Positions 12,102 through 63,262 of a stretch of DNA of 64,000 nucleotides are shown piece after piece. The stretch covers positions 544,001 through 608,000 of the forward strand of contig JBJOMY010000001.1 of the NCBI GenBank assembly GCA_046052125.1, in the 5' to 3' direction. The notes under the pieces were generated by a model. The model ran no database searches. It was not told where the DNA came from and worked only from the letters and a program-made list of their open reading frames with translations. This DNA is from Cyanobacteriota bacterium (lineage in GTDB: Bacteria; Cyanobacteriota; Cyanobacteriia; PCC-6307; Cyanobiaceae). Each line of letters starts with the position of its first letter. Within the stretch, counting starts at the first letter, position 1. The position numbers were made by a program, and so were the translations under genes.

Positions 12102-12563
12102 TTAGCTTGAGGATGACTGGCGCTCTTTTTCCATTAAAGAGAGGCACTTTGTTGCCAGTTCCAGTGTTAGCCGCAACTGATCAGAGTTGGCGTCGGTAGA
12201 TTCGGGAGAGTCTCCAGGGACAGGCCGCTTAAAAAGAACAAACTCATGAGGGCCAGCCCGATCAATGCCAATGAGCTCCCAGCCATCATGTCCTTGTGTA
12301 TTGAGGAAATGTTGAAGCTGAAAGGCGGGATCATTTTGTTGTGCGGCAATCTGTGCAGCACGGATCTCGGCTTCGGTTGGCTGGTAGAAGTTTGGAAATT
12401 CTTCCTTGAGATACGAGTCGCTGAATGGCTTCTGAGATCTTTGTGGCTGCTCACGTGTGTCCGTTTGGTCCGTAGCGCCAGCAGCCGGGGTGGGTTGAGG
12501 TTCTACAGGATCAATGTTGAGTCTTACAACTTGATATTCCCAGCGAGGCGAGTGCTTGGTCAT
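12102..12563 (-). CDS. DUF4177-like protein with internal low-complexity insert
   Basis: RWEYQVV at the N-terminus and LQHFLNTQGHDGWELIGI...VLFKRP later form the DUF4177-type pattern. Confidence 0.6.
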   Translation of the reverse strand: MTKHSPRWEYQVVRLNIDPVEPQPTPAAGATDQTDTREQPQRSQKPFSDSYLKEEFPNFYQPTEAEIRAAQIAAQQNDPAFQLQHFLNTQGHDGWELIGIDRAGPHEFVLFKRPVPGDSPESTDANSDQLRLTLELATKCLSLMEKERQSSSS

Positions 12564-12698
12564 CGCTTAGCTTCGTATATTTCGGGAATACTAGCAACAC
12601 CGAAAACAGCGCATTGGGCCATCGATTGTCAACAAATACCAAGGCTAGGCGCTAGCCGTGGGCTGTGGCGCTAGAATTGTGATAAGATTGCAGTAGAC

Positions 12699-13460
12699 AT
12701 GAAACTCGTTCGTCTCCTTTTGGGATCCTTCCTTGCTGCGGGAACCCAGCTTCACTCCCCTTCTTGGGCATCAGACGCTGCAGATGTGAAACAGATTTTG
12801 TCAAATATTCCCGTCTTTGTTCCTGTGACTCCAGATGGGAAAATCAAGCAGCTCAAACGAGAGGTTAATAAGAAAGGCGTCGATGTCGTGTTTGCTGCCA
12901 TGTCGCCTACCGCAGCATCACTACTCGTTGATCAAGTTATCCGTCCTGCTGAAGGAAAGGGCGCAAACGACATCACATTGACTGTGATGCCAATTACGCA
13001 GTTTAGGGAGTCTTTTGCTGCCATCAAGGCTGAGGCTATTGGTCCAGTCGAAATGGCCTACGTTCCAGATCCGATGCAGGAAGGCCCGGCGGTCAGCCTG
13101 ATGACTTCACAGGGTGTGAAAAGAGATGTCGCGGTGAATATCGCGCGCTCTCAACCCATCTTCTTCTGCCCGGAGCCACTCCTCACCGTGACGCAGAAGG
13201 TTGCCAATCAAGACCGCACATTTTCACCTTGCGGACAAGATTATGTGCAGATGTCTCTTCTAGTGCTTGGCTCTAATATCAAAGGGAGCAGGCCGGGCCT
13301 GCAAGCTGTCCCGCTTGCTGCACTTGAGGAATCCCTTTTATCTCAACCGGCTGAAAAGATCAAGAGCGTCCTTTTGCTCCCCTCTGCGGCGACCGAACAA
13401 GCCCTTCAGAACAACAGCAAGGGCAACGGTGGCGACGGCCGAGGCTCGACCAAAAAATAA
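12699..13460 (+). CDS. Divergent Tic22-like periplasmic chaperone
   Basis: Signal peptide, then ILSNIPVFVPVTPDG, MAYVPDPMQ..A, PIFF, LQAVPLAAL and VLLLPS, giving the two-fold Tic22 motif order. Confidence 0.65.
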   Translation: MKLVRLLLGSFLAAGTQLHSPSWASDAADVKQILSNIPVFVPVTPDGKIKQLKREVNKKGVDVVFAAMSPTAASLLVDQVIRPAEGKGANDITLTVMPITQFRESFAAIKAEAIGPVEMAYVPDPMQEGPAVSLMTSQGVKRDVAVNIARSQPIFFCPEPLLTVTQKVANQDRTFSPCGQDYVQMSLLVLGSNIKGSRPGLQAVPLAALEESLLSQPAEKIKSVLLLPSAATEQALQNNSKGNGGDGRGSTKK

Positions 13461-13531
13461 TAATTCCTCAATGGCATCTCTTGCCAAAAACGGAGTGCCT
13501 GCTTCAATGGACCTAGCTTGCATCCGCCTCA

Positions 13532-13936
13532 ATGTTCCTTAATCGCGAAAAGCGGCTGGCTAGACGCCAGTTCAGGGATTTTGTCCGTTGGCTCGCGGAT
13601 CAAACACAAGAACGGCGGGCCTTTCTGATGGCGCTTTGCTATCGCGAGAGCCAAGTGAGGGATCTCGTAAGTTTTTTTGGCGCCCTCAGCAAGGAGCAGC
13701 AATATGATTCGTTGATTCGGCTTGGCCTCACGCATGAACAAGCTGAGCAAGCCATTGTCAACGGTGAACTTGTTGCAGCAGACCGGCGTCGCTCGGAACA
13801 ACAGTCTTCCCCCACGGAAGATGCATCACAGCTTGATATGTTAAATCACAGCTCTCTGGATGTACCTCCTGAGCTACTGGAACCGCCTAGGCCGTTAAAA
13901 AAGAGAATTGAAATGAGATCTTCTGTAAATCTCTAA
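13532..13936 (+). CDS. Hypothetical protein
   Basis: 134-aa ATG-started helical ORF downstream of the Tic22-like gene. Confidence 0.6.
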   Translation: MFLNREKRLARRQFRDFVRWLADQTQERRAFLMALCYRESQVRDLVSFFGALSKEQQYDSLIRLGLTHEQAEQAIVNGELVAADRRRSEQQSSPTEDASQLDMLNHSSLDVPPELLEPPRPLKKRIEMRSSVNL

Positions 13937-13961
13937 AGGCTGATGGATTCAGCTTGTGAGA

Positions 13962-14258
13962 TTAGGAATGATAGGGCTTAACCCCTTTCTCAATGATTTG
14001 AGCTTTAATGGTCTCGTAATAAGTCTGCTGGGCAGCCTGAATTTGGCGCAGACGATATTGAAGCTCCTCGGCCTCATGGTTGAAGCGTAGCAAGTCCTTC
14101 AAAAGAGCTTTAACTTCATCAGGAAGACTTTCGGTGTCGTAGCTAACATCATCAACAGTGATGAGGTTTGCTGGGGCATCAAGTTGAGGTTGGTCAAAAG
14201 ATTGATCAAGCGAAGACTCGGTACGTTTTTTTCGTACCGGTTTAGTTTGCTCTGGCAT
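13962..14258 (-). CDS. Small DUF6447-like protein
   Basis: ITVDDVSYDTESLPDEVKALL followed by a coiled coil (LQYRLRQIQAAQQTY); starts 13 bp after the tpsB stop. Confidence 0.7.
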   Translation of the reverse strand: MPEQTKPVRKKRTESSLDQSFDQPQLDAPANLITVDDVSYDTESLPDEVKALLKDLLRFNHEAEELQYRLRQIQAAQQTYYETIKAQIIEKGVKPYHS

Positions 14259-14271
14259 TTGGCGAAAAGAG

Positions 14272-16077
14272 TTAGAAACTTAAGGTAACTCTAAAGAATC
14301 CGTTACCGTTGGAGAAGCCTGTAGAAGCGGCTTGTGTATCACTACTGAATGGTACACCATAGCCAGCGTCGGCGCTTAACCATCCACTGCTAGATGAGAA
14401 GAGCCTGAGGCCCAATCCGGCAGTTGCAACCGATTGAACCCCTGAGAAGCCTGGTTCAGTCTGCTTCAGAGAAACAGACCCTCCATCGACGAAGGCGTAG
14501 GGTTGCAAATAGATATTCTTGATTATATTTGGAAGCATGTACGACAATTCAAGGCTACCTATCACGCCCTGATCGCCAAGAATGGTCACCGATCGATAGC
14601 CCTTACCAAAACTATTGCCACCAAAACCAATCTGCTCCGCAGAGGGTGTTGGCCCCTTAGCAGCTTGGGCCATACCTCGTAGCGACACCTGGAGCATGTT
14701 GTCAGATGTGAGGCTTCGTTGGTATGCCAGGTTAAACTGAGCTGTTGTGAAGTCTAATTGACCGTAGTATGGCTCTGAAGATAAATCTGCAATTTGGATA
14801 TTGTTTACACTTCCCAGCATAGACAGACCTTGGCTGAGCTGAATACTCCCTTGGGATGACCAGTTCTTAGCAACTTTATTAGCTTCTAGCCTAATACGGA
14901 ATGTTCTAAGATTAGTTTCCGTGGAACTCACCTTGACATCGGGAGCCAGGGTGGCATTGGTGCTGTTGAGAAGATCAAGTTGAGCAGTCGTATAAATACT
15001 GGATAAACGATTGAGTTTTAAGGGATATCGGAATGCCCAAGACCCGAAATAACTTTCACCGCCTGTGGTCAGGTCTAAGCCTTGAACCCCTGTGCTGAGT
15101 GGGAAGGAATTGGTCTCGGTGAAGGAAAAACTACCCGAGGTGGTTAGGCCAGATGTACCAAGGGGCAGTGAAGCCGAATAAAACAGAGAAGAAAGACCAT
15201 TATTGACTGGCCATGTATATGAGCCAGACGCTGACATGCCAACAGGTATAGCAAGGACTGGGGTGTCGTAGATGCTTGCTGTGCCACGCACATTTCCAAG
15301 CTGCGACGGCACCCAGTTATCCACACCAAGGGAGGCCTGAAGCTTGTCAGGAATGATCTGCAGAGTGAGAATGCTAGATCCTGTTTCTGATCCAGGACTC
15401 AATACAGAGCCAAGTTTGATACCACCGTTGGCTTCTGCGAGCAGTAGCTGGCGCTCAAGGCGTTGAATCGTTAATGGTCCCCTTGACTGGCCCACGACGG
15501 GTTGCAGGAAAGAAAGGAGCCAGCGCTCCAATGGCCCACCAGGCTGAGTGGCTGTGGTTGATTCAGTGTCGGAGCTACTTTGTGGCTTTTGTTTCTGTTG
15601 AAGCTGGATCGTTTCGATATATCCCTCAAGGATCTGTATCTTGAGCTCACCAGTGGAAATATTCTGCTTGGGAAGCAGGGCAACACTGATGAAATACCCC
15701 TTGGAGCGATAGAGTGCGGTAACCTCCTGGGTGAACTGTTCAATCTCCGCGAACGAAAGCTGCTTATCAATAACTTCAGATGCTAACTTTTGAAGCTCAT
15801 CATTGGACACCTTGGTGTTCCCAAGGAAGATCACCTTCTTGATCAGTACACGCACACCATCATCGGCGCCGGATGTTGGCGGAGCAGATTCAACCTCGGG
15901 AGCAGGCCGTGTTGGAGACAGCTGCGGCTGATTTGGAATAGGCGGTAGATATTCACGCTGCAACACACCAGGATTGAGAACCCCAGGATTGATCTGCGCC
16001 AGGGCAGCGTTGACTGAAAGTGCCAGCACTGAAGCAACAGTGCTGGTGTACAAGAGCTTGTTGGTCACAACCAGCAA
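14272..16077 (-). CDS. TpsB outer-membrane transporter (ShlB/FhaC/HecB, Omp85 superfamily)
   Basis: Signal peptide; POTRA (IKKVIFLGNT...LYRSKGYF...PKQNISTGELKIQILEG); second POTRA (LERQLLL...LSPG); beta-barrel with EQIGFGG..GKGY loop, YAFVDGG and C-terminal Phe. Confidence 0.93.
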   Translation of the reverse strand: MLVVTNKLLYTSTVASVLALSVNAALAQINPGVLNPGVLQREYLPPIPNQPQLSPTRPAPEVESAPPTSGADDGVRVLIKKVIFLGNTKVSNDELQKLASEVIDKQLSFAEIEQFTQEVTALYRSKGYFISVALLPKQNISTGELKIQILEGYIETIQLQQKQKPQSSSDTESTTATQPGGPLERWLLSFLQPVVGQSRGPLTIQRLERQLLLAEANGGIKLGSVLSPGSETGSSILTLQIIPDKLQASLGVDNWVPSQLGNVRGTASIYDTPVLAIPVGMSASGSYTWPVNNGLSSLFYSASLPLGTSGLTTSGSFSFTETNSFPLSTGVQGLDLTTGGESYFGSWAFRYPLKLNRLSSIYTTAQLDLLNSTNATLAPDVKVSSTETNLRTFRIRLEANKVAKNWSSQGSIQLSQGLSMLGSVNNIQIADLSSEPYYGQLDFTTAQFNLAYQRSLTSDNMLQVSLRGMAQAAKGPTPSAEQIGFGGNSFGKGYRSVTILGDQGVIGSLELSYMLPNIIKNIYLQPYAFVDGGSVSLKQTEPGFSGVQSVATAGLGLRLFSSSSGWLSADAGYGVPFSSDTQAASTGFSNGNGFFRVTLSF

Positions 16078-16110
16078 AAATGCGAATCGTTAAATCAGAG
16101 AAGAGAAACT

Positions 16111-16398
16111 TTAATCCTGATACTCGTTCGATTCCTCAATCCGATATGGCTCGATATTATTGTCTTTAATTTCTTTTTCGATGGTGGCGATGTAAGCCTG
16201 CTGGCTGAGTTGGGCTTGCCTGAGCTTGAACTGCAGCTCATTCACCTCACGCGCAATTCGCATGAGATCGTCGACAAGAATTTTGATAGAGTCGGGTGCC
16301 TCCAACATGTTGTAGGAGCGACCGTCAAGCGTCAGAAGGGGCGGTGTCTGATCTTGGGACTGCTCTTGGGACTGCTCTTGGCTTAGCTCTTGATCCAT
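16111..16398 (-). CDS. Small DUF6447-like protein (paralogue of 13962..14258)
   Basis: LTLDGRSYNMLEAPDSIKILVDDLMR...LQFKLRQAQLSQQAY aligns with the other copy; start set at ATG 16398 (MDQELSQ). Confidence 0.7.
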   Translation of the reverse strand: MDQELSQEQSQEQSQDQTPPLLTLDGRSYNMLEAPDSIKILVDDLMRIAREVNELQFKLRQAQLSQQAYIATIEKEIKDNNIEPYRIEESNEYQD

Positions 16399-16657
16399 GG
16401 CAGAAAAATCTTTTGCAAATAATACCAGTTGACTTTTCATGACGCAACGATTTGAATACCGTCTTGATTCCCTCGCAATCGTCAGTAGCCCTGCCAATAA
16501 CTCAGTCGCAGACCTTAATAATCTTGATGGGGATGAGGCGGCGCTCAGGGCTCGTTGACGACGGATGAAGCGTTGTGCCTGTCCTGGTTATTGCATAATG
16601 CGATGAGTCTTAGGAATATCTGTTATCGGCATGAGTCCAGGTCTGGATTCATGCTGT

Positions 16658-30658: not shown

Positions 30659-30694
30659 TGAATTAGCCAGAATGCGATTTCAGCATACCTGGTA

Positions 30695-30710
30695 TGTATC
30701 ATCAGTTACA
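30695..30710. promoter_or_regulatory. NtcA-type binding site upstream of tpsA1
   Basis: TGTATCATCAGTTACA is a full TGTA-N8-TACA, 36 nt from the GTG at 30658. Confidence 0.65.
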
Positions 30711-30897
30711 ACAGCTGCGCACCATTTTTGGGCCGGTTTTCTCGAGCCCACCCTGTGACTGCACGAAACGTGATCCAATGACAATTCGCGCCATAGAGGC
30801 AAGAATTTACGTATGTACTGATTAAGTCTGCAGTTTCATTAGGATTGCTCTTGCGGACCCTTCTACGCCGTGCTTGCAAGCTCTTCCAAGCAATCGA

Positions 30898-31713
30898 TTA
30901 TGGCGCCTGTGATCCTGCAAGCACGCCCTGAACGAAGTGCTTATTGCGCTTTGCAGAGTCCATTCCTGTGAGTAGCGTTGGGTGAGCAAGAACTTCAATG
31001 CTGCTCACGGCTGCATCGCTTTCCTTCTTCAGGGCATTGATCATTTTCCATAATGGAACGGCCACAACTGTGATTGATTGCTGATCAGCGCGTTCTTTCA
31101 GGATTGCCAACAGGGTAGACACGCTGAAACTGCACGGAATAAACTTTTTGCCGCTGGAGCGACGATGCACTGTCGTGCCTTTGTCCTCAGCGTAAATGGC
31201 AGGTACTGGGCAGAAGACTGGAACGTCGCTTCCGATTTCTTCAGCGGCTTCCTTGCTGCTTAGGCCCTGCTGTTGAAGCAAGCGTATCGCAGCGTCTCGT
31301 TCGGCGCTGTCTGGGATGATGCTTGCTCCAAGTGATGGAAGCTGCGCGCGATAGCTCTTCCATCTCTGCAAGAAGTAGTTCAGAGTCGTGGGCGTGAAGC
31401 GGAGTTTTCCTTCAGCCGATGGATCCGTCGATGCACGAATCGCTTCCCTCACCTCGTCCAAGCCTGTGGTAGAGACCGCTGCATAGATCTTCGGTGCAGA
31501 CGATTTGTTGGCTGGGGTAATGATGACTGGGGCACCTGTCTGATCGATCGCCGTGAGCACGAAAATTCTGTCGAGCTTCTCGTCCATGACCTCCGGTGTG
31601 GCTGCTATAGACCTCAGTGGTGCATGCGTGGCTCCCAAAACCAAGAGCAAAACTGAGCCAGCGAATTGCCTCAGCGATCTGAGTGAGGGAGCCGTTGATT
31701 GTGATCGTTGCAT
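30898..31713 (-). CDS. Divergent Tic22-like periplasmic chaperone
   Basis: Signal peptide; EKLDRIFVLTAIDQTGAPVII, IIPDSAERDAAIRLLQQQG, DVPVF, KFIPCSFS and VVAVPLWKMINAL. Starts 5 bp after the tpsA2 stop. Confidence 0.7.
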   Translation of the reverse strand: MQRSQSTAPSLRSLRQFAGSVLLLVLGATHAPLRSIAATPEVMDEKLDRIFVLTAIDQTGAPVIITPANKSSAPKIYAAVSTTGLDEVREAIRASTDPSAEGKLRFTPTTLNYFLQRWKSYRAQLPSLGASIIPDSAERDAAIRLLQQQGLSSKEAAEEIGSDVPVFCPVPAIYAEDKGTTVHRRSSGKKFIPCSFSVSTLLAILKERADQQSITVVAVPLWKMINALKKESDAAVSSIEVLAHPTLLTGMDSAKRNKHFVQGVLAGSQAP

Positions 31714-31718
31714 GGCCG

Positions 31719-55700: not shown

Positions 55701-58700
55701 CCGGCCCACTTGGCCGCCTTCGTTGACGGTGATCGCTTCGATGGCAGAGTTGCCGATCCAGCCGAAGGAATTGGCAACAGCCCAATCGAGGATGCCGCCG
55801 CTATTCACAATCACTCTGCTGCTGTTGAGTGTGCCGGCGCCGCTACCGTCGAAGCGATCCAACGAGAGGGTGCCCCCATTGATCGTGGTGGTGCCCGTGT
55901 AGTCGCTCCAGTTGGTGAGATTGAGGGTGCCGGTGCCGTTTTTAACCAGCCCACCAGTGCCGCGGATGTTGCCCGCGAAGCTGCGATTGCTCGTTTGATT
56001 CAGCGTGAGCGTACCGCTGCCCAGCTGGATGGAGCCGCCTGTGCCCGACAGCTTGCCCATGGAGTGGCTGACGCTGTTGAGATCGAGCAAGCCACCATTG
56101 ACGATGAGATCGCCTCCGGATGGGAGGCTGCTGCCGGCTCCAGAAAGCGCGAGGGTGCCTGAAGACACGGTCGTGGAGCCGTTGTAGGTGAGCTGGTTCG
56201 AGAACGTCTGAGTGCCAGATCCTTTCGTCTTGGCGATGGAGCCTTGACCTTGAATCACACCGGCAAAGGTGCTGTTTGCGTTGTCGCCCAGCGTCAAGGT
56301 GGCGTTGTTGCTGAGGTTGACGACTGTGTTGGTTGGGCTACCTGTGTTATGCCCCAGCAAACCGATCGAGATATTGCCGCCGATGTTTAGCGTCGTGCCG
56401 GCATCCATGCGCACATCGGAGTCGACGTTGAGGCTCCAATTCGTGCCGCTGAGCTCGAGCGTGCCACCACGGAGAACGTAGTCGCCGAAGTTCCCCTGGG
56501 CACCAGAGAAGGTCTGCTTACCAGCCCCGGCCTTTTCGATCCACAGATTCCAATCAACAATGCCTGAATAGGTGTAGTTGGCAGCGCTGGTTGAATTGGT
56601 GATGTAGATCGCCTTGTTGCCGCCGGCGCCATAGGTGTTCTGCAGGAGGCCGCCACCAGTTAATCCTGAGATGTAGACGTTTTCGCTGTATGTGTCGAAG
56701 GTTGTTCCAGAGTCAATCTGAAGCACGCCTTGGTTGTTGCGCCAGTTGTCCCGCGTGTAGTTATGGCTTACTTGCCCCTCCGCCACCTGAAACAGGCCGT
56801 CGCTGGCTTGGCTCACGATGAAGCGGCGATCGTTCCAGCCCATCTCCAGGCTAAACGTGCCCGTTTTTTTAACGGTGCCGGAGCCATTGAGTGTTAATGA
56901 GCGACCAGATTCGAGGTAGGTTTGATTGCTGGAATTGCCCGCTGTTGCCGCGAGCTCCAGCACGGCACCGCTGTTCACCGTGATCGTCTGGTCGCCATTC
57001 GCCCAGCGGAAGCGGTTGGTGCCCTCGGCCGAGCCAGGCACAAGTCGCAGCGTGCCCGCTTGAACTGTTGTGCCGCCCGTCATGTCGCCACGACCGGCCA
57101 AGGTTTGTGTGCCGGTACCGCTCTTGATCAGGGTCCCGCTGCCGGTGATGTCGCCGCTGTAGCTCCCGGATCCGCCCACATTGAAGATGACATTTCCTCC
57201 GCCGACGGAGATTTCACCTGATCCAAGTACTGCACCCGTTGTGGTTTTCAGTTCCAGGCAGTCCCTCCTGTCACACACGCGAAGGATCCTGGCATTGATG
57301 TTGATGTTCCGGTAGGCATCGAGGGTGAGTTTGTTGTTGCTACCGCTGGTGAAAGCCGTTGCAAGGGTGATATCACCTGCTTGTGTTCCGGCTGAGCCGG
57401 CTCCACCGGTGCTCACCGTGACGTTCGAGCTACCTAGAGCGTTTGTGAGGGTGGTGACATTGACCACTGCCGAATCAGCAGTGCCTGTGAACGATCCATC
57501 CACTCCTGCCTGCGTTCCTTCGCTGATGGTGATGTTGTAGGGATCGAGCAACCACAGGCCCGTTTCACCCGCTGCCGCCGTTGTGTCCACGCGGATGTCA
57601 TCCACCTTCAGGTCGTAGCCGGAGGTTTCGATGCGGCCGCCGTTACCGCCTGCCGCACCACCTTTGGCCAGCAGCGTGCCCGACACCGTGGTGACGCTGT
57701 TGGCTTTGGTGATGTCGCTCCAGGCGACGATCGTGCCGCCGTCACCCAGGCGTGTGGCCGATGCATCCACTACCGCACCGCTGGCGATGGTGGTGGTAGT
57801 GGCCTGGCGCACGCTCGGGTTGCTGTTTTGCCAGCTGCCGCCGATCTGGATGGTGCCGCCCGCTGTTTCGCCCTTGGCATTCAGGGTGGCTGCCGAGCCA
57901 ACATTGATGGCATCAGCCACGATGGTGATGGCACCGCCTCTGGTGCCGTTGGTGGCTTGTATGGCTCCCTGGATGTCGACGTTGCTACCTGCAATGTCGA
58001 TCCTTTCGCCAGCTTTCAGAGATCCTGACTGGCTGACCTCTACTGAGCCAGTGCTGACCAGTGCCAGGTTTTGCGCCGAGCGCAACTCCTGATGCACCAC
58101 GATCGAGCCGTTGTGCGCGGCATCACCGATGGTGAGCTTGCTCACCGGTGCCTGATTGATCGCCTCAAGCGTTGAACCGCTCAGGGTGAGTGTGCCGAGG
58201 GTGGGGAGTGCACCGGCCTGGGCCGCACCGATTTGAATCGCCTGCTGTGGTGCGCTTGAGGTGATCTGCAGCTGACTCGACGGCCCCAGATCCAGGGCCA
58301 CCTGGATCGGCTTGGCGATCTCAATGTCTGCAGCGCTCAGCCTGATCGATGGCGCTGAGAGGAAGAGATTGCCTTGGAAGTTCAACCGGTTGGCCACACT
58401 GATGTCGCCCCGTAGGTCGATCCGCGTGGGTGCCAGCACCTCAAGGCTGTTCAAGCCCGAGAAGCCGAGGAAGGTGATGTTGCCCGTGCTCGGGAAGCTG
58501 CAGGTGGTGGAGCAGGCCTCAATCACGAGGTCTTGGCCGGCAAAGTTGAGCGCACTGGCCTGATCGATCGTGAGATCAAGCCCGTCGAGATACAACCGCT
58601 TGATGGTTGTGATTGATGCCGTTGGCGCAGCGGGGGTGCTGATCTGCGCTGCGGTGGCCTGGGTCGCAACCTGCTGCTCTGTGGCCTGCTCCACCTGGGC

Positions 58701-60578
58701 GATGGCCTCGGCTTCTTTGTCGTCCTCTGCGGCTGTGGTGGCTGGCGCTGCAGCCTCTGACTCTGGAGCGGGGGCCGCCTGGCTAAGCGGCTCTGTAGGG
58801 CTTGGTGAGCTGGTGGTTTGAGCCGTGTTGGCCTGGTTGGCTGCCACCACCAAGCTTCCAGCGCTGGGCTGATCGGTGGAGATGGCCTCTGCACCTTGAA
58901 TTTCGCCTTTGGCTTCCACCGTGACGGTGGAGCCCTCGTTCACGGCTTGTTGGAGCGATTCAGCACTGATCGTGCTGGTTGCTTCTGTTGGGGCTGCTGT
59001 TGCGCTCTCCTCTGTTGTTGATTCGCTGTCTGCGCTGGTTGCTTCTGTGGTGGTTGCTGCCGTTGCCGCTTGTTCGGTGGAGGTGATTTCCACCTCTTCT
59101 GGATCAAGCAACCACTGGCCCGCTTGGCCTTTTGGTGCAGCGGTGGTCACCCGACCGGTGACGTTGAGCAGCTTGGCCGAGCTGGTTTCCACAAAACCAC
59201 CATCACCGCCCTCAGCCCCACCAACGGCGCTGATGGAGCCGTGCATGTCGGTGCGCTCGTCGCTCCAGACGATCACGCGGCCACCATCGCCCTGTTTAAC
59301 CGCATCAGCGCTGATTCGGCTGTTGTGGTCGATCAGCACAGCTTTGGCGTTGGGGAGTGCCGCATTGGCACCGCGTTGATCACCGCCGATGCGGATCTGG
59401 CCACCACCACTGGTGCCGTTAACGCTGAGGACAGCGCCAATCAGCTGAATGTTTTCTCCGAGGATGTCGATGCTGCCGTCGTAGAAGCGGCTCACATCAC
59501 CACTGCTCGATCCCTGTGAAAACAGGCTGCCCGGCTGCAGGCTCACCCCTTTGAGTGCAACAGCTGCATCGCCCGCCGCGACGGTGTGATCGCTGAAGGC
59601 TGTCTTCGACTGATCGGATTTTGAAACGAGGTTTTGTGCTTCCAGGGTGCCCTGGAGCTTCACCTGTTTGCCGGCAACCGTGATCGCTCCGGCCGGTGCA
59701 CTCACCGCTTCTCCGCCGAGCAACTCCGCCATGGAGTTGGCCTGAACAAGACCGCCGACGTTGACGACGGAGGTGAGCGCCCCGCCCAGGTGGGACGCAC
59801 CGATCCAGATGTCTCCGCCTGGAGCCTGGATCGTGCCTTGCTGATTGATCAGCGAATTGAGAACTTCATCACTCACCGCCAGAGTGATCAAGCCATCGCC
59901 ATTCACATCCAGCGTGGCGCTCTGGCCGCTGGCCAGCACCACCGTGCCCATGCGGGCACTGATCAGGCCCTCGTTGCTGATGTTGGCGCCCACCAGGGCT
60001 GCCAGGCCACCTTCTGCAACGCTGATGCTGCCTTGGTTGAGGATTTGGCCTTCTGCGGGCCCGCTGGTGGGTTTCCACAGGCGCAGAGGGCCGCCCGAGA
60101 GGAACTGCTCAGGGTTGGCATCCAGCGTGGAGGCCATGAAGCTGGCCGTGTTCACGCTGCCGGAGGGTCCGATCAACAGGCCCTGCGGGTTCAGCAGGAT
60201 CACCCCGCCGTTGGCCTTCAGCAGGCCATCAATTTTTGACGGCCCTAGGCCGCCAACCACCCGGCCCAGAAACAGCGACTTGGCGTCCGGCTGCTGGATG
60301 AGCACCCGCTCGTTGGCGCGGATGTTGAAGCTGTTGAAATCGACCGCCCCACGCCGCTGCTGCTGGCGGATCTGGAGGGTGGCCGGATCAGGGTTCGAGA
60401 ACTCGATGCCACCACCGCGCACGCGTGCGCCATCGGGCAGGGCGAAGCACGGCGCAGCCGAAAACGCTGCAATGGCCGCCATCGCACCGGTTTGCACCAC
60501 AAGCGCAGCCGCGTCGCGGCCACTGGGTCGGGCCTTTCCGGCCAGATCGCTTGCAGTGGCGGGTGTTTCCGGTGCCAA
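31719..60578 (-). CDS. Giant filamentous-haemagglutinin-type TpsA exoprotein 2 (9619 aa; TPS domain, long PATR region, YDG and MBG-like repeats, tandem beta-helix repeats)
   Basis: Uninterrupted 28.9-kb ORF with the same signal and TPS domain as TpsA1. Many KxGxGTLTLxGxNTYxG repeats (c.46200-57150), KxYDG repeats (c.36070-45500) and three LTVTAND...YxG(F/L)VxGET MBG-like units. Confidence 0.93.
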   Translation of the reverse strand: MAPETPATASDLAGKARPSGRDAAALVVQTGAMAAIAAFSAAPCFALPDGARVRGGGIEFSNPDPATLQIRQQQRRGAVDFNSFNIRANERVLIQQPDAKSLFLGRVVGGLGPSKIDGLLKANGGVILLNPQGLLIGPSGSVNTASFMASTLDANPEQFLSGGPLRLWKPTSGPAEGQILNQGSISVAEGGLAALVGANISNEGLISARMGTVVLASGQSATLDVNGDGLITLAVSDEVLNSLINQQGTIQAPGGDIWIGASHLGGALTSVVNVGGLVQANSMAELLGGEAVSAPAGAITVAGKQVKLQGTLEAQNLVSKSDQSKTAFSDHTVAAGDAAVALKGVSLQPGSLFSQGSSSGDVSRFYDGSIDILGENIQLIGAVLSVNGTSGGGQIRIGGDQRGANAALPNAKAVLIDHNSRISADAVKQGDGGRVIVWSDERTDMHGSISAVGGAEGGDGGFVETSSAKLLNVTGRVTTAAPKGQAGQWLLDPEEVEITSTEQAATAATTTEATSADSESTTEESATAAPTEATSTISAESLQQAVNEGSTVTVEAKGEIQGAEAISTDQPSAGSLVVAANQANTAQTTSSPSPTEPLSQAAPAPESEAAAPATTAAEDDKEAEAIAQVEQATEQQVATQATAAQISTPAAPTASITTIKRLYLDGLDLTIDQASALNFAGQDLVIEACSTTCSFPSTGNITFLGFSGLNSLEVLAPTRIDLRGDISVANRLNFQGNLFLSAPSIRLSAADIEIAKPIQVALDLGPSSQLQITSSAPQQAIQIGAAQAGALPTLGTLTLSGSTLEAINQAPVSKLTIGDAAHNGSIVVHQELRSAQNLALVSTGSVEVSQSGSLKAGERIDIAGSNVDIQGAIQATNGTRGGAITIVADAINVGSAATLNAKGETAGGTIQIGGSWQNSNPSVRQATTTTIASGAVVDASATRLGDGGTIVAWSDITKANSVTTVSGTLLAKGGAAGGNGGRIETSGYDLKVDDIRVDTTAAAGETGLWLLDPYNITISEGTQAGVDGSFTGTADSAVVNVTTLTNALGSSNVTVSTGGAGSAGTQAGDITLATAFTSGSNNKLTLDAYRNININARILRVCDRRDCLELKTTTGAVLGSGEISVGGGNVIFNVGGSGSYSGDITGSGTLIKSGTGTQTLAGRGDMTGGTTVQAGTLRLVPGSAEGTNRFRWANGDQTITVNSGAVLELAATAGNSSNQTYLESGRSLTLNGSGTVKKTGTFSLEMGWNDRRFIVSQASDGLFQVAEGQVSHNYTRDNWRNNQGVLQIDSGTTFDTYSENVYISGLTGGGLLQNTYGAGGNKAIYITNSTSAANYTYSGIVDWNLWIEKAGAGKQTFSGAQGNFGDYVLRGGTLELSGTNWSLNVDSDVRMDAGTTLNIGGNISIGLLGHNTGSPTNTVVNLSNNATLTLGDNANSTFAGVIQGQGSIAKTKGSGTQTFSNQLTYNGSTTVSSGTLALSGAGSSLPSGGDLIVNGGLLDLNSVSHSMGKLSGTGGSIQLGSGTLTLNQTSNRSFAGNIRGTGGLVKNGTGTLNLTNWSDYTGTTTINGGTLSLDRFDGSGAGTLNSSRVIVNSGGILDWAVANSFGWIGNSAIEAITVNEGGQVGRADNALQQHMWNNFTVEMTGGKFYMGNNTQVMGLTFNIKAPTTSGAISEILPGGGSGDFRLRNDGLNITFDVAQNASALVSAPIHTNGTHGTLTKSGLGQLELAGNNTYYGATYVNAGTLKVSGTQYPSAGDGTETTVATGATYIAANTHKIAYLQGGGNVQILSGVTLTSDDSASTTYSGVMSGAGRFVKSGSGELTLSGVNTFSGGFTLENGTVWLNSASGPAIATNITLGNNTANASNLRMMRDNQFADGLVLTSANAAGNWTRFDLRGTNQSLKQIISGSSSAQGSLILQNIGSDGTVVSGRSQGTLTLTGNDNSILNAWVRDQDSNGTNNPLKIVKRGSGDLLFLHTSSKNDGMNFTGGLDVQAGTVTVGDGSDHGRIGSAPVSLAAGTTLTYHRSTNPYSINNNWSGDGTVILKGTGANGQSSYSYYGTNSLSAAGTVVVDKARFDVTTGGTLGNASTIDVRTGGQLFFSSAVTGTFSAPILLAGSGWKEPDGSQLGAIRHSSSNLVTLSGPITLANNARIHTSGAGNLAISGVIDDGVNSFGLEKTGYYGLTLTAANTFGGDTVIRGGKLYLNNQTGPALYNAPTGSTERPSGTVRINNDNSTGSNTSGGYFVGVHTLAANQLGSNVNVSFDGTSYTGGWYNEFALDGFSQTIGNLLDAGGQQRNLIQLQNSVSNKTATLTVNQTTDATYTGSFRRNWSGSGSELNLVKNGSATLTFKTSSSHTNHLQGGNLTVNAGEFVYNIDDDPSANGNTTLGLNKITVAAGSTFTYVNDTSVTLTPELAGAGTVQLKGINTINVGDFDLTRSNASFSGAMRISDNTRLKLGTDIGLGTATLNVASGSGVFVYTTTPITTALSIAGQGWNEGTGRLGALRLDNGASWAGTVALTADADVGTYSSSDAASITGVISGATTSRLWKTWNGTLTLSGLNTYTGGTGLAGGVLAVSSVANAGAASALGASTADAANLLFNGGSLRYTGSASATSNRGFSIAAGGSGTIDLPSGSLTFSGGTPATTGSLSKSGSGTLALAGASLFTGSTTVSAGDLEILPGGNLGGGAYAGAISLGNGSTLRYKAGGTQAFSGAISGTGGNLLIDGATSVVTLSGSNTYTGRTDLDGGTLKITGGTSQTTAMDIASGTTLEFDTGATSWTGGGTDSNLTGSQRAFWTGTSGVTWTGGGTIIKKGSATLGISTDDADTWALAAGSKIDVQEGRLYFGWGWNDTATNNKVDVNVASGATFDLWDLPQYRIRNLTGSGTVSGASYTNATLPTLVVGESDATSTFSGTVTGLVGAITKVGTGTFTLDGAVNHGFSKSLSINAGEFKLTSSGRFNSGTLNGSVSVASGATLRFDTSSAQTLAGVVSGSGTLIQQGEGLLTLSNNNTFSGQTTIAANRQLYIGNSSGSTGSIGGDVNVGAGALLTYKSDASSRVVSNTLSGSGQVEFTGTATSTQGGYKLSLASPNFSGTVISKPQTRLTVTNAGAFGTGIVRVENTGQLYLTAEGSQAFGAAGLANTVYLAGDGWQESVGQLGALRIDNSALFSGNAILTANARIGVWGDTGWGTIGGVISEQGGSFALEKWGPGRMLLTGASTYTGQTIVGDGILRLANTNGPALYTGAGGGEVVINHKVNSTGWTFPNVWAQLEFGADNQLGADVDVTFDTQNPFAYMTLRGTTQTIGNISTGANPGWAVLQNVESAAHDTGVGAARLIFNQTRDLEFKGYLRDAYRDSAGRDSNATPTSGGTKPSLALEKYGSGKLTITTDTYSTGGITIHAGTLQIGDGNGVGSLDSRNTVNLTSTSSTLEYFRNNDVSINHNITGIGNVIFRGTGVSGQSHYDYNGTNSIGVDATITVDKARLRVDAQANIGTNNPWVIVKQGGQLWFPSSPTINSRIKLEGEGWLEAAATNKGVNGLGALRLDNNGTLQLNGQIVLTGNARIGMWSTNANVSIASSISESGGSHGLEFRAFNPSTTDSTASLVTLTGSSSYTGYTNLISGRLRLANPNGRALYTNTAATSNISIISEVNGADAFLEFGANNQLGSNVNLVFDSRSSGWAETNIMGTSQVIGNILQGSNSNNWRANIQNHWNLDNLANGTLTITQAQDVAFTGNVRDKAGTPGTSKLNIVKDGAGTLRLLNTTNPYSYGGSTTVNDGTLAFDFDTNGSGNVSPRTSGVTLNANDAAGTRGVLEFNVGSGTRDLAYNLSVSGNGTLRKTGAGKIQWGTTAATFNLGPGSWIDVQGGEFVAGSYNNEVWTDNKASLNIASGATFSSVENNVIIDALTGGGTWRSGWSGLSSSPTIGIAGGSGTFSGVIQDYDAANNHKLQNVIKVGSGTQIFTGANTYSGVTQVKGGVLQIGAGGTTGQLGSSSTEVQLTGGSLVFNRSNAYSVSQAVTKGSNPANNTGLLIQDGSGTTTLSHTTNTYNVGTQVNAGKLVFGGSSTETPTVDIASGATLTLSGNLNTFTNTAGITYRGAGTLERDGATTSSVGYLHGSYGGTIDLSAGGWIKLLKGELRLANGSVSDWTSNEASLDIASSANLNLFDYNNANGVIIDALTGSGEIKRSGGSGATTLQIGIANNIGVTNATATYSGNITDSTLALSKKGDGVQIVSGTHAYTGATNIEAGTLRLSGTLSDSTVVSVSANATFDVRSTDTIGSLAGATGSFVTLASGNVLTFGDGTNRDVNALISGAGGLKKAGTGTVSFGGAVGANSYTGITTISGGILRLAADEQLPNLSALVLSGGVFDVNNRTETAGSIAGTTGITLGTGTLSVGGLNTSTSYSGVISGAGGNLAKTGSGTLTLAGASTFTGGLSVTAGTLALGVSGALADSLPVSVTNATFDLAGFSDRIGTLLLTDSSVLGTAGTLTTAGITASNANSQSIQPHLAGTGGLIKTGAGRLTLVGDGTFSGTVSVDTGSLRIGDNGTTGSLNGNAIALANNATLEFSRASGQASSFSGLVSGTGALRLLGGDLTLSGANTYSGSTWVDGGKLILGANEVIPNASLLTIANGGEFFLNGKTETVHRVAGTGTIRLASTLIIGGDNSSYVLNPTVVGTGDLVKAGSGTITILQDLGLTSPSTVTVQAGTLQLGNTVSSGTLGGANIVNNAALVIRPGANTTINGTLSGSGSLLIDASGWSATLASSNAGFSGATSVTAGTATFGASQAFGTGTITVAAGAALDLKGSQSTNSSITLTAQGDTPVLLSSSGTGQITGSVTATNAATFSSSSGGGITIDGVLTVPGQLSLLGGGNFTALNLNNSVPVIASVNVGNLDLRTAGDLTLGSITQGLTITNGIRSSGSVRLMAGGALTLPSSSLISSTGGAIALQGARFDNLAGANALLAGGGKSWTVRSTNADPFGLNGGTADQRGGLVFDYKRYGVTGDVGLPVDGRNGFEYTYQPVLTAAIGGTATKVYDGNVNIALGNINYTASGMVDGDSSILLVGEGTFADKNVGTGKVITPGAIYFQSGDSGNATGNKPVYGYAVNQTPTSSNVSGSITPRTATLVLSAADKVYDGTTAGSANTGSASFTNMVSGDQLTVSSVATFSDKNVGTGKTVFLVNTFGGTDVGNYTVIDQTTTTAAITRKTLTFNGATGLSKTYDGTTAITSGNGLGTLDGIVSINGVADVVTGAGQAIFSSKDAGTVSVNQGGAYLTGADSGNYTFTWAPSTATINKATLTVTANDDAKFVTLNDPVAANGSTGYAGVRYSGFVNGETTSALNLTGLTVTRDRSGLTGANSTEDPAGSYAGKLQASGLSSNNYAFNYQAGNFTIVPAGELVIRTAPVNATNTYGSTPALQVSSAQYVTISGGTTTLHTLTVNPSGSDFVVTDIAGGSSTVSLAVANPALSTAQQIQAGNYAITTGSFTQTGSNNFDGTPLILGNVTISPKQLTSPVLSTAPSKVYDGTQSLGALPITATGLVATDVVSFASDNYFSDKNAGTGKSYTAASIRLGGADAANYYITTTSISGTDGVITPKNLTISGLTAADKVYDRTRTATVNTAGATFNGLIAGDTVSVSSNGTFATKNVGTQTVTFNNLTLGGADAGNYTYSGGTLTTTAAISKATITGVTGIAASPKVYDRTGAANLDLTTAVLAGLISGDHLTISSANGAFTNVNAGAGRTVAISGLTLGGTDVGNYQLASTTTSTTADITKATITAIGNLSGVNRTYNATTAAQLNTASATFTGLIDGDGLSVGSYNASFANKNAETGKAITINSLSLGGISAGNYQLGSGAIPTTLTADVSRASITAISGITANNKVYNDSTAATLNTAGASFAGIAPGDVLSVATATGAFSDQHVGTNKHVTISGLSLGGTDAANYTLADNTATANAEITKATLTIGSISAANRTYDGTTAAQLSGYSFADLFSGDAVTLSFTGQSFGDKNVGVGKTVTFTGAAITGNDAGNYQLASALPTVTANITPLALQVSNLRAANKVYDATNTATVDFSQAVYNNRQGNDVLSVSGVGTFNQATVGDNIGVTFTSLSLTGADAGNYSFAGGTLSTSGNITPRPITAVSGVTATDRVYDGTAVATVGLTGAVLTGNLDGSNLTLTGGTASFADKAVGTNRTVTVTGASLGGSAAPNYTLDAPVTSAASITPVTISAVTGVSANNRVYDGGVTATLNLSNAGFTNKLGADSLTIGTYTASFSDKTVGAAKAVSVSNMTLGGADAGNYQLTATTLSLTADITPKAISITGISSVDRTYNQNNDVALNQATAVFNGAALGDVLLALGGNGTMANADAGTGKLVTITGLSLAGADAANYTLSSNASTSTVNIARAPLSLSGATGLTKVYDGTTALPGGATAYGALGGVLTGDVVELSGLARFDSKDGGQRAVQVGTLALTGSSAHNYTLNWTDGSGTITKKALTVTANNDARFVTQTEPSGYNGVSYTGLVAGETGSVLGGALSFTRQQGVEFNSAGNYTLTPSGLTSSNYEISYENGTYTIVAANRLLIKTANETQTFGSIISLAPTSVQYLAADSRLYDLTQATTSSGEYTYTYNDGAGGSFTFRLGAVGPMSNSGNLTVGNYDVTATTFTQTGRANVDPGGPVYVGKLTIAPKLVQASVTAPTKMYDGTTAASTSAVSLSGVLTNDVVAPTAGPAGSFSGPDAGTNRAYSYSGLALSGDDAANYYLASNTLTGNDGVITPRVLSISGSNAAARTYDGTRNATVSVGTLSGFVTGQTVTAAVQSAVFDSANAGMQTATVSYSLANGTGGGLASNYTLAGDRLSALITPKELILGTATVDGKVYDGTTAATITPGTVSGVLSGESIAVTATGSFRSANAGLQTADFTYTLTGGGNTVATNYTLPSFAGSANATITAKGLSFATPTSVVGRVYDGTTIATASLGTLTGFVGGESVTAAIQSALFDSANAGTRQATVTYSLSGNGATNYSLASDVITAAITPKALNWSIDSTAVGRAYDGTRDASVNLGSLAGFVGTEEVTASVQSAFYTSANAGTTTASVSYALADGANGGLASNYSLASNLVNGLITTKALSISGTSAASRQYDGTTTASITPGQLAGLVGNETLGVTATGTFANTNVVGVQAVTGTYQLVDGSGLASNYSLANPTGLQASITERVLTISGSQAVERSYDGTTNAAVNPGTLNNVVAGESLQVVASGVFSSKDAGYRDVTTTYSLSDGVNASGLASNYVLAGEILSSRITPATLSLSSLTAADKTYDGTTAATLTLGTLEGTLGETLGVTASGAFNTADAGNSIPVSYTLTLVDGVGAQAGSASNFVLADPGLTLTASITPRALSITPGTVTTKAYDGTQIAVVTPGQLSGMVGAETLSISQVDAQFASKNAGTHAVTTNYTLANGSNGGKASNYTLAGSTLSGTITPKSLQIFGSLVTDKVYDRSTVATVTPGNLVGVVTGEGISVSVASATFDSSNAGARLATVTYTLNDAPSVDGVPSALASNYQLGSQQLYGAITPKAITISGITAADKTYDGNTLATVNTQGATGWLLGDNIVVSASGNFDNKNAGAGKTVSLSTTYSGNDLDNYLITSQTSTTATIAPRAITISGITASDKTYDATTAASVDVGFASGWLAGDAVSVSATGVFSDKNAAIGKTVLLSSTYSGDDIANYLIADQASATATINKATLSVSGSSGLTKVYDGTVALGASDLPGYGPLAGVLLSDAVSLNGAAQFFAKDAGSVDVVRGNVALAGADAGNYTLNWSNGSGTITQAPLTIAANDNATFYQQALNLSSAGVRYTGFVNGETSSVLAGSLAYSSNASNTQAGNYTLSVSGQTSNNYSITYSPATYTVVPANSLLVKLNNSSTTYGDAPSYSINSVSYLAADNTSIVSLTGNQIGLTGNTITVNDGSSSAVFDIAISNPSLSTGRYLNVGGYDLSTRNLSLTNGGNFSGTVTLLGSLQVGQREITIGGITAAGKEYDATTSATITTTNAAGWLTGDSVLVSTTGAFATKAVGTNKTVDLGPASYSGADVGNYRINNQLTTTATITPKAITISGIRALDKVYDGSTTASFDTTAATGWFAGDAVTVTPTGVFSDKNVAPGKTVTLTSSTYSGADAGNYQITNQVTSAASITQLASVTWTGPATGDWLDPLNWAGGAVPDLANVANVILPSGIQATLGTSAVSPAATGPITLTSISGGGSLVQSGGSLQVGSGGISLNSLNQSGGLLASSGAIQLATLTQSGGALSTPSDLFITGTFSQSGTGNLSVGNNLTITAGSTPVMQSGTAQLSVGGVTSISTTSDISLASSSNNFTGSLNLNADDIAIADLNGITLGSITTTGNLNLNAGGNITQSGPLIIAGTSNFSTPADITLLNQQNAFPGAISASGNDIQIYNSLTTILGTITATGNTGDPASLSVTAANGDITATGTITSEDLTLTATTGDITQSGSGTIIASGATNLTAGDDINLSSTSNNFGGAVSASGNDIALGDSNGITLGTTTSTGNFSVNAGGDITQSGPLIVAGTSNFSTLADITLLNQLNAFTGAISASGNDIQIYNSLATILGTITATGNSSDPASLSVTAANGDITATGTITSEDLTLTATTGDITQSGSGTIIASGATNLTAGDDINLSSTSNNFGGAVSASGNDIALGDSNGITLGTTTSTGNFSVNAGGDITQSGPLIVAGTSNFSTLADITLLNQLNAFTGAISASGNDIQIYNSLATILGTITATGNSSDPASLSVTAANGDITATGTITSEDLTLTATTGDITQSGSGTIIASGATNLTAGDDINLSSTSNNFGGAVSASGNDIALGDSNGITLGTTTSTGNFSVNAGGDITQSGPLIVAGTSNFSTLADITLLNQLNAFTGAISASGNDIQIYNSLATILGTITATGNSSDPASLSVTAANGDITATGTITSEDLTLTATTGDITQSGSGTIIASGATNLTAGDDINLSSTSNNFGGAVSASGNDIALGDSNGITLGTTTSTGNFSVNAGGDITQSGPLIVAGTSNFSTSADINLLDQLNAFTGAITASGDDIQIHNSLATILGNIDAGGTFSLTSLGDVTQVAGTALDIAGDSSFSTPGSLNLSNAGNDFQGPVNLDALNIAIADSNDLQLGNVDADGTFSLTSGGDVTQVAGTALDIAGVSSFSTPGSLNLSNAGNDFQGPVNLDAVNIAIADSNDLQLANVDADGTFSLTSGGDVTQIGSGVIRVGGTTEITASGDLLLGNAGNDFRGPVNLDAGDITIKDSNGIELGRISAGGDFSATANGPVTTTAPLNVAGRTSIVVPVAPSGGGGGGSSTGGGKNGAGGSNANNGNDGTYRPTPGTIGSIAAETFVTISSGVQTVSNTPASVAIASTGSWSDYMSMPFNDPADAAYDPTGNSIAGQGPSTIALVTVPSVDGYNWAPSQIGIAVEIAYPSLNISSEIAANGNIELEGTISGPASAPSTEGPSTTLSEQLGGTEAAGSNEASTAQEQLPGASQISAEPAIDSSQVILVEPDGEIKSTGDGTPNNEPGRDVTPLQEQDAIRNSNERPDQNVVPSFLRAMRNSLTTRMQVSRFFKTQLGRIARADKGTKGD
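32845..33310 (-). repeat. 207-nt (69-aa) tandem repeat, two copies plus partial
   Basis: GACATCACC..TGA.GTCAG.GAGAAGGTGCC recurs near 32850, 33057 and 33264. Confidence 0.85.
33312..35500 (-). repeat. 489-nt (163-aa) near-perfect tandem repeat, four copies plus partial
   Basis: Shadow ORFs start at 33883, 34372, 34861 and 35350 (period 489) with identical or near-identical translations. Confidence 0.93.
59638..60558 (-). repeat. Copy 2 of the near-identical tpsA 5' region
   Basis: Matches 29728-30647. Confidence 0.92.
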
Positions 60579-60586
60579 GCCGTTTG

Positions 60587-60601
60587 GTATCTGTGGTTAC
60601 A
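60587..60601. promoter_or_regulatory. NtcA-type binding site upstream of tpsA2
   Basis: GTATCTGTGGTTACA is GTA-N8-TACA, 8 nt from the TTG at 60578. Confidence 0.6.
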
Positions 60602-63064: not shown

Positions 63065-63262
63065 CGCAGCGCCATTCTGACAAGCCGCGCAGTTGTTACC
63101 CCGTGACGTGCCGGGATCTGGGGTGCTCTTCTTTTTCGTAGTGATACTTCAGGCACCACCATGAGAGTTAGAAGTAGACCACTGAGCGAACAGACGCTCC
63201 AGTCGCTCGCTTCACAATGCGAGAGGTCTACGCCAAGCTAAGCAAAGACTCCATGCCAAACC

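Follow-up and report, generated by a model that had tools for sequence, protein, structure and literature searches.

The closest described relatives of the locus reported here are the two-partner secretion (TPS, type Vb) systems, such as FhaB/FhaC of Bordetella and ShlA/ShlB of Serratia. These systems share with it the TPS domain of the secreted exoprotein (TpsA), a transporter (TpsB) of the ShlB type with POTRA domains and a barrel, and adjacent genes on the same strand. Classical TPS systems use general periplasmic chaperones like DegP and Par27, which are encoded outside the locus, and type V systems are usually described as needing general chaperones only. The passage of proteins with thousands to tens of thousands of residues through the periplasm, unfolded and undegraded, is poorly understood. 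The locus was found in a stretch of 64,000 nucleotides (the window) of a cyanobacterial genome of the family Cyanobiaceae (assembly GCA_046052125.1, contig JBJOMY010000001.1, positions 544,001 to 608,000). It contains one tpsB gene, two giant tpsA genes, two genes for Tic22-like proteins (A and B) and two small genes for proteins resembling the family DUF6447. The same accessory genes were identified beside giant autotransporters, which belong to type V secretion as well. We consider it somewhat probable that they form an accessory module which is specific to this lineage and serves giant passengers of type V secretion, whether these are TpsA proteins or autotransporters. This module would consist of Tic22-fold proteins with a signal peptide and of hydrophilic DUF6447-like proteins.

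Both giants carry the N-terminal TPS domain of filamentous hemagglutinins (TIGR01901), with E-values of 4.1e-16 for tpsA2 (58.7 bits) and 1.4e-15 for tpsA1 (56.9 bits) at a cut-off of 29.1 bits. In tpsA2 the domain covers residues 80-153. The Pfam TPS model PF05860 has no match on either giant at E<=0.01. The body of the tpsA2 product contains 19 PATR, 29 YDG, 14 DUF5649 and 3 MBG_2 repeats and that of the tpsA1 product 25 YDG and 4 PATR repeats (Pfam), arrays which represent an adhesin-like architecture. The first ~1,180 residues of both proteins, including the TPS domain, are 81% identical. On the DNA level, 27252-30647 and 57172-60558 are 85% identical over 3.4 kb, and past this stretch no blastn similarity between the two genes was found at E<=1e-20. 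Because of the similar N-terminal part, one TpsB can plausibly take both substrates. The tpsB product matches POTRA_2 (5.6e-21, 74.6 bits) and ShlB (1.3e-20, 74.5 bits), both above the cut-offs. The 2.64-Mb genome has no other ShlB match, and a genome scan for TPS-type proteins yielded none besides the two giants. Two giant TpsA proteins and one TpsB, as postulated in the original prediction, are therefore confirmed, and the gene order and coordinates given there agree with the list of open reading frames (ORFs). With TPS-domain substrates, a ShlB-type TpsB and tpsA-tpsB linkage (tpsA1 and tpsB lie on the same strand, with 160 and 33 bases and one small gene between them), the island is predicted to encode a type Vb system with one TpsB channel and two giant adhesin-like TpsA proteins.

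The minus strand carries tpsA2, Tic22-like gene A, tpsA1, small gene 1, tpsB and small gene 2 in this order (Table 1). Starting from tpsA2, the intergenic gaps measure 5, 239, 160, 33 and 13 bases, the 5 bases being those between tpsA2 and Tic22-like gene A. Tic22-like gene B is located on the plus strand, 0.5 kb from this row.

Table 1. Features of the locus in the window, and loci of other genomes in which a DUF6447-like gene accompanies an ORF of 780-818 amino acids (aa).
Feature	Coordinates	Strand	Length and description
tpsA2	31719-60578	-	9,619 aa from TTG start; giant TpsA exoprotein
Tic22-like gene A (P0001)	30898-31713	-	271 aa; paralog clade I
tpsA1	16658-30658	-	4,666 aa; giant TpsA exoprotein
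Small gene 1 (P0003)	16111-16497	-	up to 128 aa; DUF6447-like, hydrophilic, coiled-coil C-terminus
tpsB	14272-16077	-	601 aa; Omp85-superfamily TpsB transporter
Small gene 2 (P0004)	13962-14258	-	98 aa; DUF6447-like
Tic22-like gene B (P0002)	12699-13460	+	253 aa; paralog clade III
153-aa ORF	12102-12563	-	sub-threshold matches only; no link to system shown
DUF6447-like gene and 780-818-aa ORF (three loci)	L069:7702-10795, L070:7624-10678, L061:5383-8256		

Neither Tic22-like protein has a Pfam match at E<=0.01 or an NCBIfam match, and their assignment was made by structure and by profile comparison. An AlphaFold (AF2) model of protein A, built from 8 relatives, the only ones among 5.8 billion clusters, reached a pLDDT of 73. 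Foldseek returned four Tic22 chains as the only significant matches to this model, namely 4ev1 of Anabaena (2.6e-11), 4e6z of Plasmodium (8.8e-10), 8xks_I and 8xqw_Q. The low-confidence model of protein B gave the same four chains at 2.4e-5 to 2.5e-4 and nothing else below 1e-3. The sequences of A and B are 21% identical (E 2e-6), and the profiles of their families align over 220 columns (hhalign, probability 95.9, E 6e-9). A six-frame search of the genome with PF04278, the Pfam model of Tic22, found only two genes. One is the canonical Tic22 on contig C3, and the other is a paralog on contig C7, which passes with 23.9 bits at a cut-off of 23. Both of these Pfam-positive genes are matched by the profile of the A family (1.2e-16 and 5.3e-4). 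In addition, a joint profile of 16 paralogs matches the Anabaena Tic22 (4ev1) at 1.5e-7 over its full length (positions 38-266). Two cysteines in FCPxP...PC motifs are invariant in 16/16 aligned paralogs from all three clades described below, which is consistent with a disulfide in the periplasm. Proteins A and B also share a hydrophobic segment after a charged N-terminus. The term Tic22-like in the original prediction is thus right with respect to fold and distant homology, while formal membership of the Pfam family is not reached. The genome retains the canonical Tic22 on contig C3, and the copies in the window are extra paralogs.

Small proteins 1 and 2 have an identity of 42% over 66 residues (E 2e-18). 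Their matches to PF20045 (DUF6447) are weak, with 8e-4 and 19.6 bits for small protein 1 and 1.4e-3 and 18.8 bits for small protein 2, at a cut-off of 27. In a search of the whole genome with PF20045, three small genes scored 19.9, 16.9 and 13 bits and the true member of the family 140 bits. Small proteins and DUF6447 have a motif in common, recognized by eye, in which PPxLTxDGxxY...LPD is followed by a coiled coil; the small proteins of the window end with the coiled-coil-like ELQ(F/Y)(R/K)LRQxQxxQQxY. The Atlas clusters nearest to small protein 2 are DUF6447 clusters. The second pair named in the original prediction was therefore found to be a pair indeed, distantly related to DUF6447 and outside the Pfam family. 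Some of the DUF6447 clusters near small protein 2 are mostly viral (Uroviricota). A link to phages was tried and dropped: the canonical copy had no tblastn match in 50,697 phage records, and PHROGs gave a single weak match of function unknown.

The neighborhoods of DUF6447 genes outside the window were also analyzed. On contig C1 (471258-473281; L045:5259-7282), the true DUF6447 gene of the genome and the 3' end of an ABC exporter gene overlap. The canonical gene directly follows an ABC exporter gene in this genome, G422 and G341 (not in G285), and in G341 a DUF6447 relative ends a row of genes for a PPIase, an ABC protein (980 aa) and HlyD. Relatives located directly upstream of ORFs of 780-818 aa were found in G637, G673 and on contig C33 of G603 (Table 1). 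The ORFs of G637 and G603:C33 match a Reprolysin-type metallopeptidase, that of G603:C33 also Calx-beta, and that of G673 (L070) has no Pfam match. The loci L069 and L061 adjoin hybrid two-component regulators. What these neighborhoods have in common is the export of large proteins. No paper on DUF6447 was found in a literature search, and the position beside exporters and large secreted proteins provides the first functional hypothesis for this family.

A third Tic22-like/small gene pair is located on contig C7 of the same genome. Its Tic22-like gene matches the B family at 2.6e-46 and is convergent with a third small gene, only 4 bases apart. Next to the pair, a frame that stays open for 2,431 aa or more runs off the contig (G000:C7:73155-80447; L013:11156-18448). 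This giant has glycine-rich repeats and a hydrophobic leader, which is a predicted signal peptide. Pfam and NCBIfam assigned it to no family, and its first 800 residues lack a TPS domain. The same trio of Tic22-like gene, small gene and glycine-rich giant occurs in G011, a genome of the same genus. In G333 the giant comprises 10,689 aa (G333:C1:1046227-1078296), and its last 799 residues match the autotransporter barrel TIGR01414 (5.3e-15, 55.4 bits, cut-off 16). All copies share the N-terminal hydrophobic leader (ALLPAFLL...SVLAQTQ) and repeats of the QSIGGGGG type without a Pfam family; the N-termini were checked by eye and two of them also by NCBIfam. The barrel in G333 together with the conserved leader identifies the glycine-rich giants as classical type Va autotransporters, the barrel being seen in the G333 copy and the C-terminus of the C7 giant lying beyond the contig end. 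Downstream of the giant in G333 lies a gene for a 424-aa protein with a YadA-like membrane anchor (L038:5721-6995, 1.2e-10), followed by polysaccharide and glycosyltransferase genes.

Altogether, the pair accompanies glycine-rich giants on C7 of this genome and in G011, G333, G601, G614, G626 and G636. G626 and G636 are complete genomes which contain the giant and the pair and have zero ShlB matches. Since the same accessory genes flank type Va giants in genomes without TpsB, they do not represent a TpsB-specific system. The N-terminus of the giant was also searched in 225 other genomes and was found in three of them (G333, G601 twice, G614), all of which carry the pair. If the C7 copy is counted, four of the five matched giant N-termini have an adjacent pair.

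A second TPS locus with accessory genes was identified in the complete picocyanobacterial genome G614. Its minus strand carries tpsB, a small frame, a giant tpsA, an overlapping frame and a Tic22-like gene. The TpsB (616 aa) is the closest relative of the window TpsB that was found (phmmer 9.6e-67), and the small frame is a single frame with two tandem DUF6447-like modules. The giant frame comprises 20,437 aa and matches TIGR01901 at 7.9e-18. It is 46% identical to tpsA2 over 456 aa in the TPS region and 31-40% over segments of the body. A frame of 6,349 aa overlaps it, and the Tic22-like gene follows 3 bases later. The two frames (G614:C1:861752-923062, minus strand; L047-L050) might together represent a single tpsA that exceeds 26,000 codons and contains a frameshift or an assembly error; as one gene, it would be among the largest known from bacteria. 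Contig C30 of G603 carries two small genes, a TPS fragment of 141 aa (1.9e-12) and a Tic22-like gene, and looks like a remnant of the same TPS layout. In genus g207 the Tic22-like paralog lies beside ParA, and in G603:C30 (L060:8520-11452) LuxR-type (GerE) genes are present as well. In G543 (C56, L065:9003-13842) a phage-type integrase lies beside the Tic22-like paralog, in the position which the TPS remnant occupies in G603. The region around the paralog may therefore be mobile or recombining in g207.

For the Tic22-like proteins a phylogenetic tree of 29 rows was calculated, from which the near-identical P0006, P0007, P0014 and P0015 as well as P0010 and a G638 fragment were left out. It was midpoint-rooted for drawing only, and the canonical row of contig C3 stands on a very long branch. 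The tree shows three well-supported clades of paralogs, separate from canonical Tic22. Clade I contains protein A and its metagenome relatives, clade II the TPS-locus copy of G614 (G614b), the G603 copy and the orphan paralogs, and clade III protein B together with every autotransporter-linked copy. Two of the three clades include TPS-linked members. By its position in the tree, Tic22-like gene B with small gene 2 is assigned to the same convergent pair module as at the type Va loci. Tic22-like gene A belongs to another clade, so Tic22 paralogs became linked to type V giants more than once.

The distribution of the genes was surveyed at two levels, with 300 further genomes sampled from the same family and 400 further cyanobacterial genomes sampled across the class. 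In the class-wide sample, good matches to the small proteins are confined to the family of the window and one other family. In the family sample, the small-protein profile matches 10 genomes at E<=1e-5, and a ShlB-type TpsB is present in 84 genomes. The Tic22-like matches are bimodal: a strong group of 14 loci from 13 genomes reaches E<=1.3e-37, and all remaining matches stand at E>=2e-12. The weak group is tentatively read as housekeeping Tic22, because the Pfam-positive C3 Tic22 of the window genome scores there (4.2e-9). Five of the 14 strong loci lie beside a glycine-rich giant with a small gene nearby (G333, G601, G614a, G626, G636). The small gene is adjacent and convergent in four of these; in G636 it lies 29 kb off, across the giant. 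Two further strong loci are the TPS locus of G614 (G614b) and the remnant G603:C30, and for three more (G488, G539, G638) the contigs are too short for an assignment. Adjacency counts are based on PF03865 coordinates; phmmer with the window TpsB misses most divergent TpsBs. Scans of giant frames with the window TPS region by phmmer or hmmsearch gave unreliable negatives, as they missed the 20,437-aa frame of G614, in which TPS was detected by NCBIfam and BLAST. Two additional locus searches used pattern seeds that were too strict: the search of metagenome contigs with the A family yielded four loci (two near-identical, one short and one weak), and the search of genome contigs with the small-protein alignment yielded one.

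The window represents a low-G+C island of a freshwater picocyanobacterium, with a G+C content of 0.49-0.58 across the locus and 0.60-0.64 in the flanks, the latter measured in the left flank. A tRNA scan of the window found none, and no integration site was identified. The flanks encode a YcgJ-family protein (10910-11653, 9.4e-25) and a protein similar to the lysozyme inhibitor MliC (63242-63619, 6.1e-16); most of the remaining flank ORFs have no Pfam family. The 153-aa ORF next to Tic22-like gene B matches DUF4177 at 0.0039 and Sp36 at 1.4e-6 (28 bits, cut-off 50), has no paralog elsewhere in the genome and is unrelated to the small pair. The convergent Tic22-like and small genes are separated by a few bases to ~70 bases at the other loci, compared to 500 bases here. 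This gap (13461-13961) holds an ORF of 134 aa without a family (13532-13936, plus strand). Promoter and terminator scans of 12000-17000 and 30500-32000 gave no useful excess over shuffled sequences. Of the words sampled from 12102-17000, 28-43% are present in each of six RNA libraries (metatranscriptome runs). Four of these runs, which come from four studies, have contigs that match 25-29 of the 30 bins of 12001-32000 with >=95% identity, and some of these contigs bridge the junction of Tic22-like gene A and tpsA2 and the convergent gap. Over 17675-24717, RNA-library contigs skip 1,887, 2,440 and 268 bases within the YDG array of tpsA1, which points to environmental relatives with differing numbers of repeats, or to collapsed assemblies.

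The gene identities, the folds, the paralogy and the repeated linkage to giant type V proteins of two classes are shown by the data. Several results weigh against an accessory module for type V giants. Accessory genes adjoin only the G614 locus among the ShlB matches in 84 of the 300 genomes, and TPS secretion does not generally need them, as most TpsB loci lack them. In G578, which has the next-closest TpsB and a TpsA with the Pfam TPS domain, no accessory gene was found in the 8 kb upstream (downstream lies off the contig). Four of the 14 strong Tic22-like loci (G473, G616, G543, G533) have no giant or type V gene within ~7 kb. A fifth orphan paralog from the genus sample (G006) has no giant within this distance either, and the second glycine-rich giant of G601 (contig C31) has no pair on record. 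The surveyed genomes are related, and their loci are not independent events. On the level of single proteins, A and B are unmatched by PF04278 in the six-frame search even at E<=10, the model of B is poor (pLDDT 48), and the small genes of the window stay below the gathering score of DUF6447. The signal peptides of A and B are predicted by eye and hydropathy. A cytoplasmic location of the small proteins is likewise read from their sequences by eye and hydropathy, as they are hydrophilic throughout and lack a hydrophobic segment and an export signal. Since Tic22-like gene B and small gene 2 converge, they cannot form one transcript. The RNA-library contigs do not prove transcription, since DNA carry-over is possible. 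The extended TpsB system of the original prediction is supported in part: the recurrence of the accessory genes at G614 and G603:C30 speaks in its favor, and their absence beside other ShlB loci and their presence with type Va giants speak against it. In the 300 sampled genomes of the family, the neighborhood survey of tpsB genes suggested there gave co-occurrence at the G614 locus only.

For localization, binding partners and effect on secretion we infer the following model. After Sec export, the Tic22-like protein would act as a holdase which keeps the unfolded giant passenger in the periplasm and would then hand it to the POTRA domains of an Omp85-type partner. This partner would be TpsB for the TpsA proteins and BamA or the passenger's own barrel for the autotransporters. 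Such a hand-over would mirror the role of housekeeping Tic22 for Omp85 and Toc75. The DUF6447-like protein could act at the cytoplasmic side, where it may keep the precursor export-competent or couple it to the exporter; such a cytoplasmic role in export is proposed because canonical DUF6447 genes follow ABC/HlyD exporter genes. Dedicated Tic22 paralogs and a DUF6447-like cytoplasmic partner might together constitute a private chaperone relay, docking on the TpsB POTRA domains at TPS loci, an idea we put forward tentatively and would not call probable. A complex prediction of TpsB residues 29-245 with residues 38-260 of protein A (score 0.00, mark 0.32) gives no verdict either way. If the relay exists, the Tic22-Toc75 hand-over of chloroplasts would have a counterpart in free-living bacteria, and a periplasmic chaperone encoded in the locus itself would be known for a type V system for the first time. 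The relay would also help to explain the passage of proteins with 5,000 to 20,000 residues through the periplasm.

Alternatively, the Tic22-like and DUF6447-like genes could be ordinary cargo of the variable islands which house the giants, with no role in secretion. The low G+C content of the island, the orphan Tic22-like paralogs near peroxidases, amylases, PLD, ParA and an integrase, the lack of accessory genes at most TpsB loci and the different gene orders of the window and G614 would all fit such hitch-hiking. We nevertheless regard it as unlikely, because the linkage recurs at at least nine loci, in three genera, two secretion classes and three Tic22-like clades. The convergent arrangement of Tic22-like and small gene is kept at a distance of a few bases to ~70 bases, and no genome of the sample contains a glycine-rich giant without also containing the pair (3/3 among 225). 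A periplasmic chaperone fold would also fit well beside proteins that cross the periplasm unfolded. The same fold might serve the barrels and not the passengers, by aiding the insertion of TpsB or autotransporter barrels into the outer membrane. Anabaena Tic22 is tied to outer-membrane protein biogenesis, and a barrel is present in both linked secretion classes. According to PMC4811774, a cyanobacterial Tic22-like protein cross-links to Omp85. This explanation appears quite improbable to us, given that only one locus among the TpsB genes of 84 of 300 genomes has such accessory genes adjoining, that type V linkage of the paralogs was seen only with giants of thousands of residues, and that in the window and in G614 the Tic22-like gene directly follows a tpsA and not tpsB.

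In contact-dependent inhibition loci, cdiI follows cdiA, and by its position (5 bases after tpsA2, 3 bases after the G614 giants) the short gene behind each giant tpsA could likewise encode immunity against a C-terminal toxin of TpsA. This is very improbable indeed, as the protein in question has a Tic22 fold and an N-terminal hydrophobic segment predicted to serve export, and as members of the same family flank autotransporters on their N-terminal side. No known toxin family was detected in either giant with Pfam, and the last 399 residues of each, compared with solved structures, matched no toxin but only an antibody fragment (7e-4). Membership of the CdiBAI systems, which would require a C-terminal toxin and a cytoplasmic immunity protein, was rejected on these grounds, novel toxin domains being still conceivable. 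There is also little reason to believe that the DUF6447-like proteins are regulators, anti-sigma-like or translational, which control expression without a part in export. They are hydrophilic coiled-coil proteins without an export signal, and three relatives lie upstream of large ORFs, at two loci beside hybrid two-component regulators. However, no DNA-binding or known regulator family was detected in them with Pfam, NCBIfam or PHROGs. The overlap of the canonical DUF6447 gene with the 3' end of the ABC exporter gene and the position of a relative behind ABC and HlyD genes point to export machinery instead.

The accessory module for type V giants, which we prefer over these alternatives, can be compared with several known systems. 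In contrast to classical type Vb systems, there are two giant substrates per TpsB, genes for Tic22-fold and DUF6447-like proteins are encoded in the locus, and PF05860 does not reach E 0.01 on the giants. Locus-encoded accessory genes are also known from HMW1ABC and EtpBAC, where they encode cytoplasmic glycosyltransferases; here they encode a predicted periplasmic protein with a chaperone fold and a small coiled-coil protein. From DUF6447 of Pfam, with which they share the motif and weak matches, the small proteins differ in staying below the cut-off, and the true member of the genome lies behind an ABC exporter gene. Giant repetitive surface proteins encoded in islands, like SwmB with 10,791 aa, were described in marine Synechococcus, and roles in motility and grazer defense were proposed for them (PMC9387257, as far as its text was available). 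Such proteins of picocyanobacteria are thought to be relevant to grazing and aggregation. In the available parts of the same source, neither Tic22-like or DUF6447-like neighbors nor a type V mechanism is mentioned for them.

With the housekeeping Tic22 of Anabaena (4ev1) the window copies share the fold, the full-length profile match and the N-terminal export signal (predicted here). They differ from it in staying below the Pfam cut-off, in forming separate clades and in being linked to type V loci instead of being single-copy housekeeping genes. In cyanobacteria, Tic22, and not the proteobacterial chaperone set, is the known partner of Omp85, and a linked Tic22-fold paralog would be a concrete candidate for a dedicated periplasmic holdase. 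A full-text literature search, judged by listings and abstracts, gave no description of Tic22 paralogs linked to type V loci. At the same level, the combination of Tic22 with two-partner secretion or autotransporters led only to papers on Omp85/TAM evolution and barrel assembly, and that with hemagglutinin to unrelated papers. In chloroplasts, a POTRA-bearing polypeptide channel of the Omp85 superfamily, Toc75, likewise works with an inter-membrane-space chaperone of the Tic22 family (PMC4811774 and PMC12895209, available text), and the POTRA domains of Toc75 bind Tic22 (PMC4811774, available text). The direction is import there and export here, and the partner here would be TpsB or an autotransporter, with a putative interaction. 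A pairing of Tic22 with TpsB, if true, would bear on the origin of the Toc75-Tic22 import step. Taken together, the known part of the locus is an ordinary TPS core, and its new part is an undescribed, lineage-restricted accessory module which is shared with giant autotransporters.

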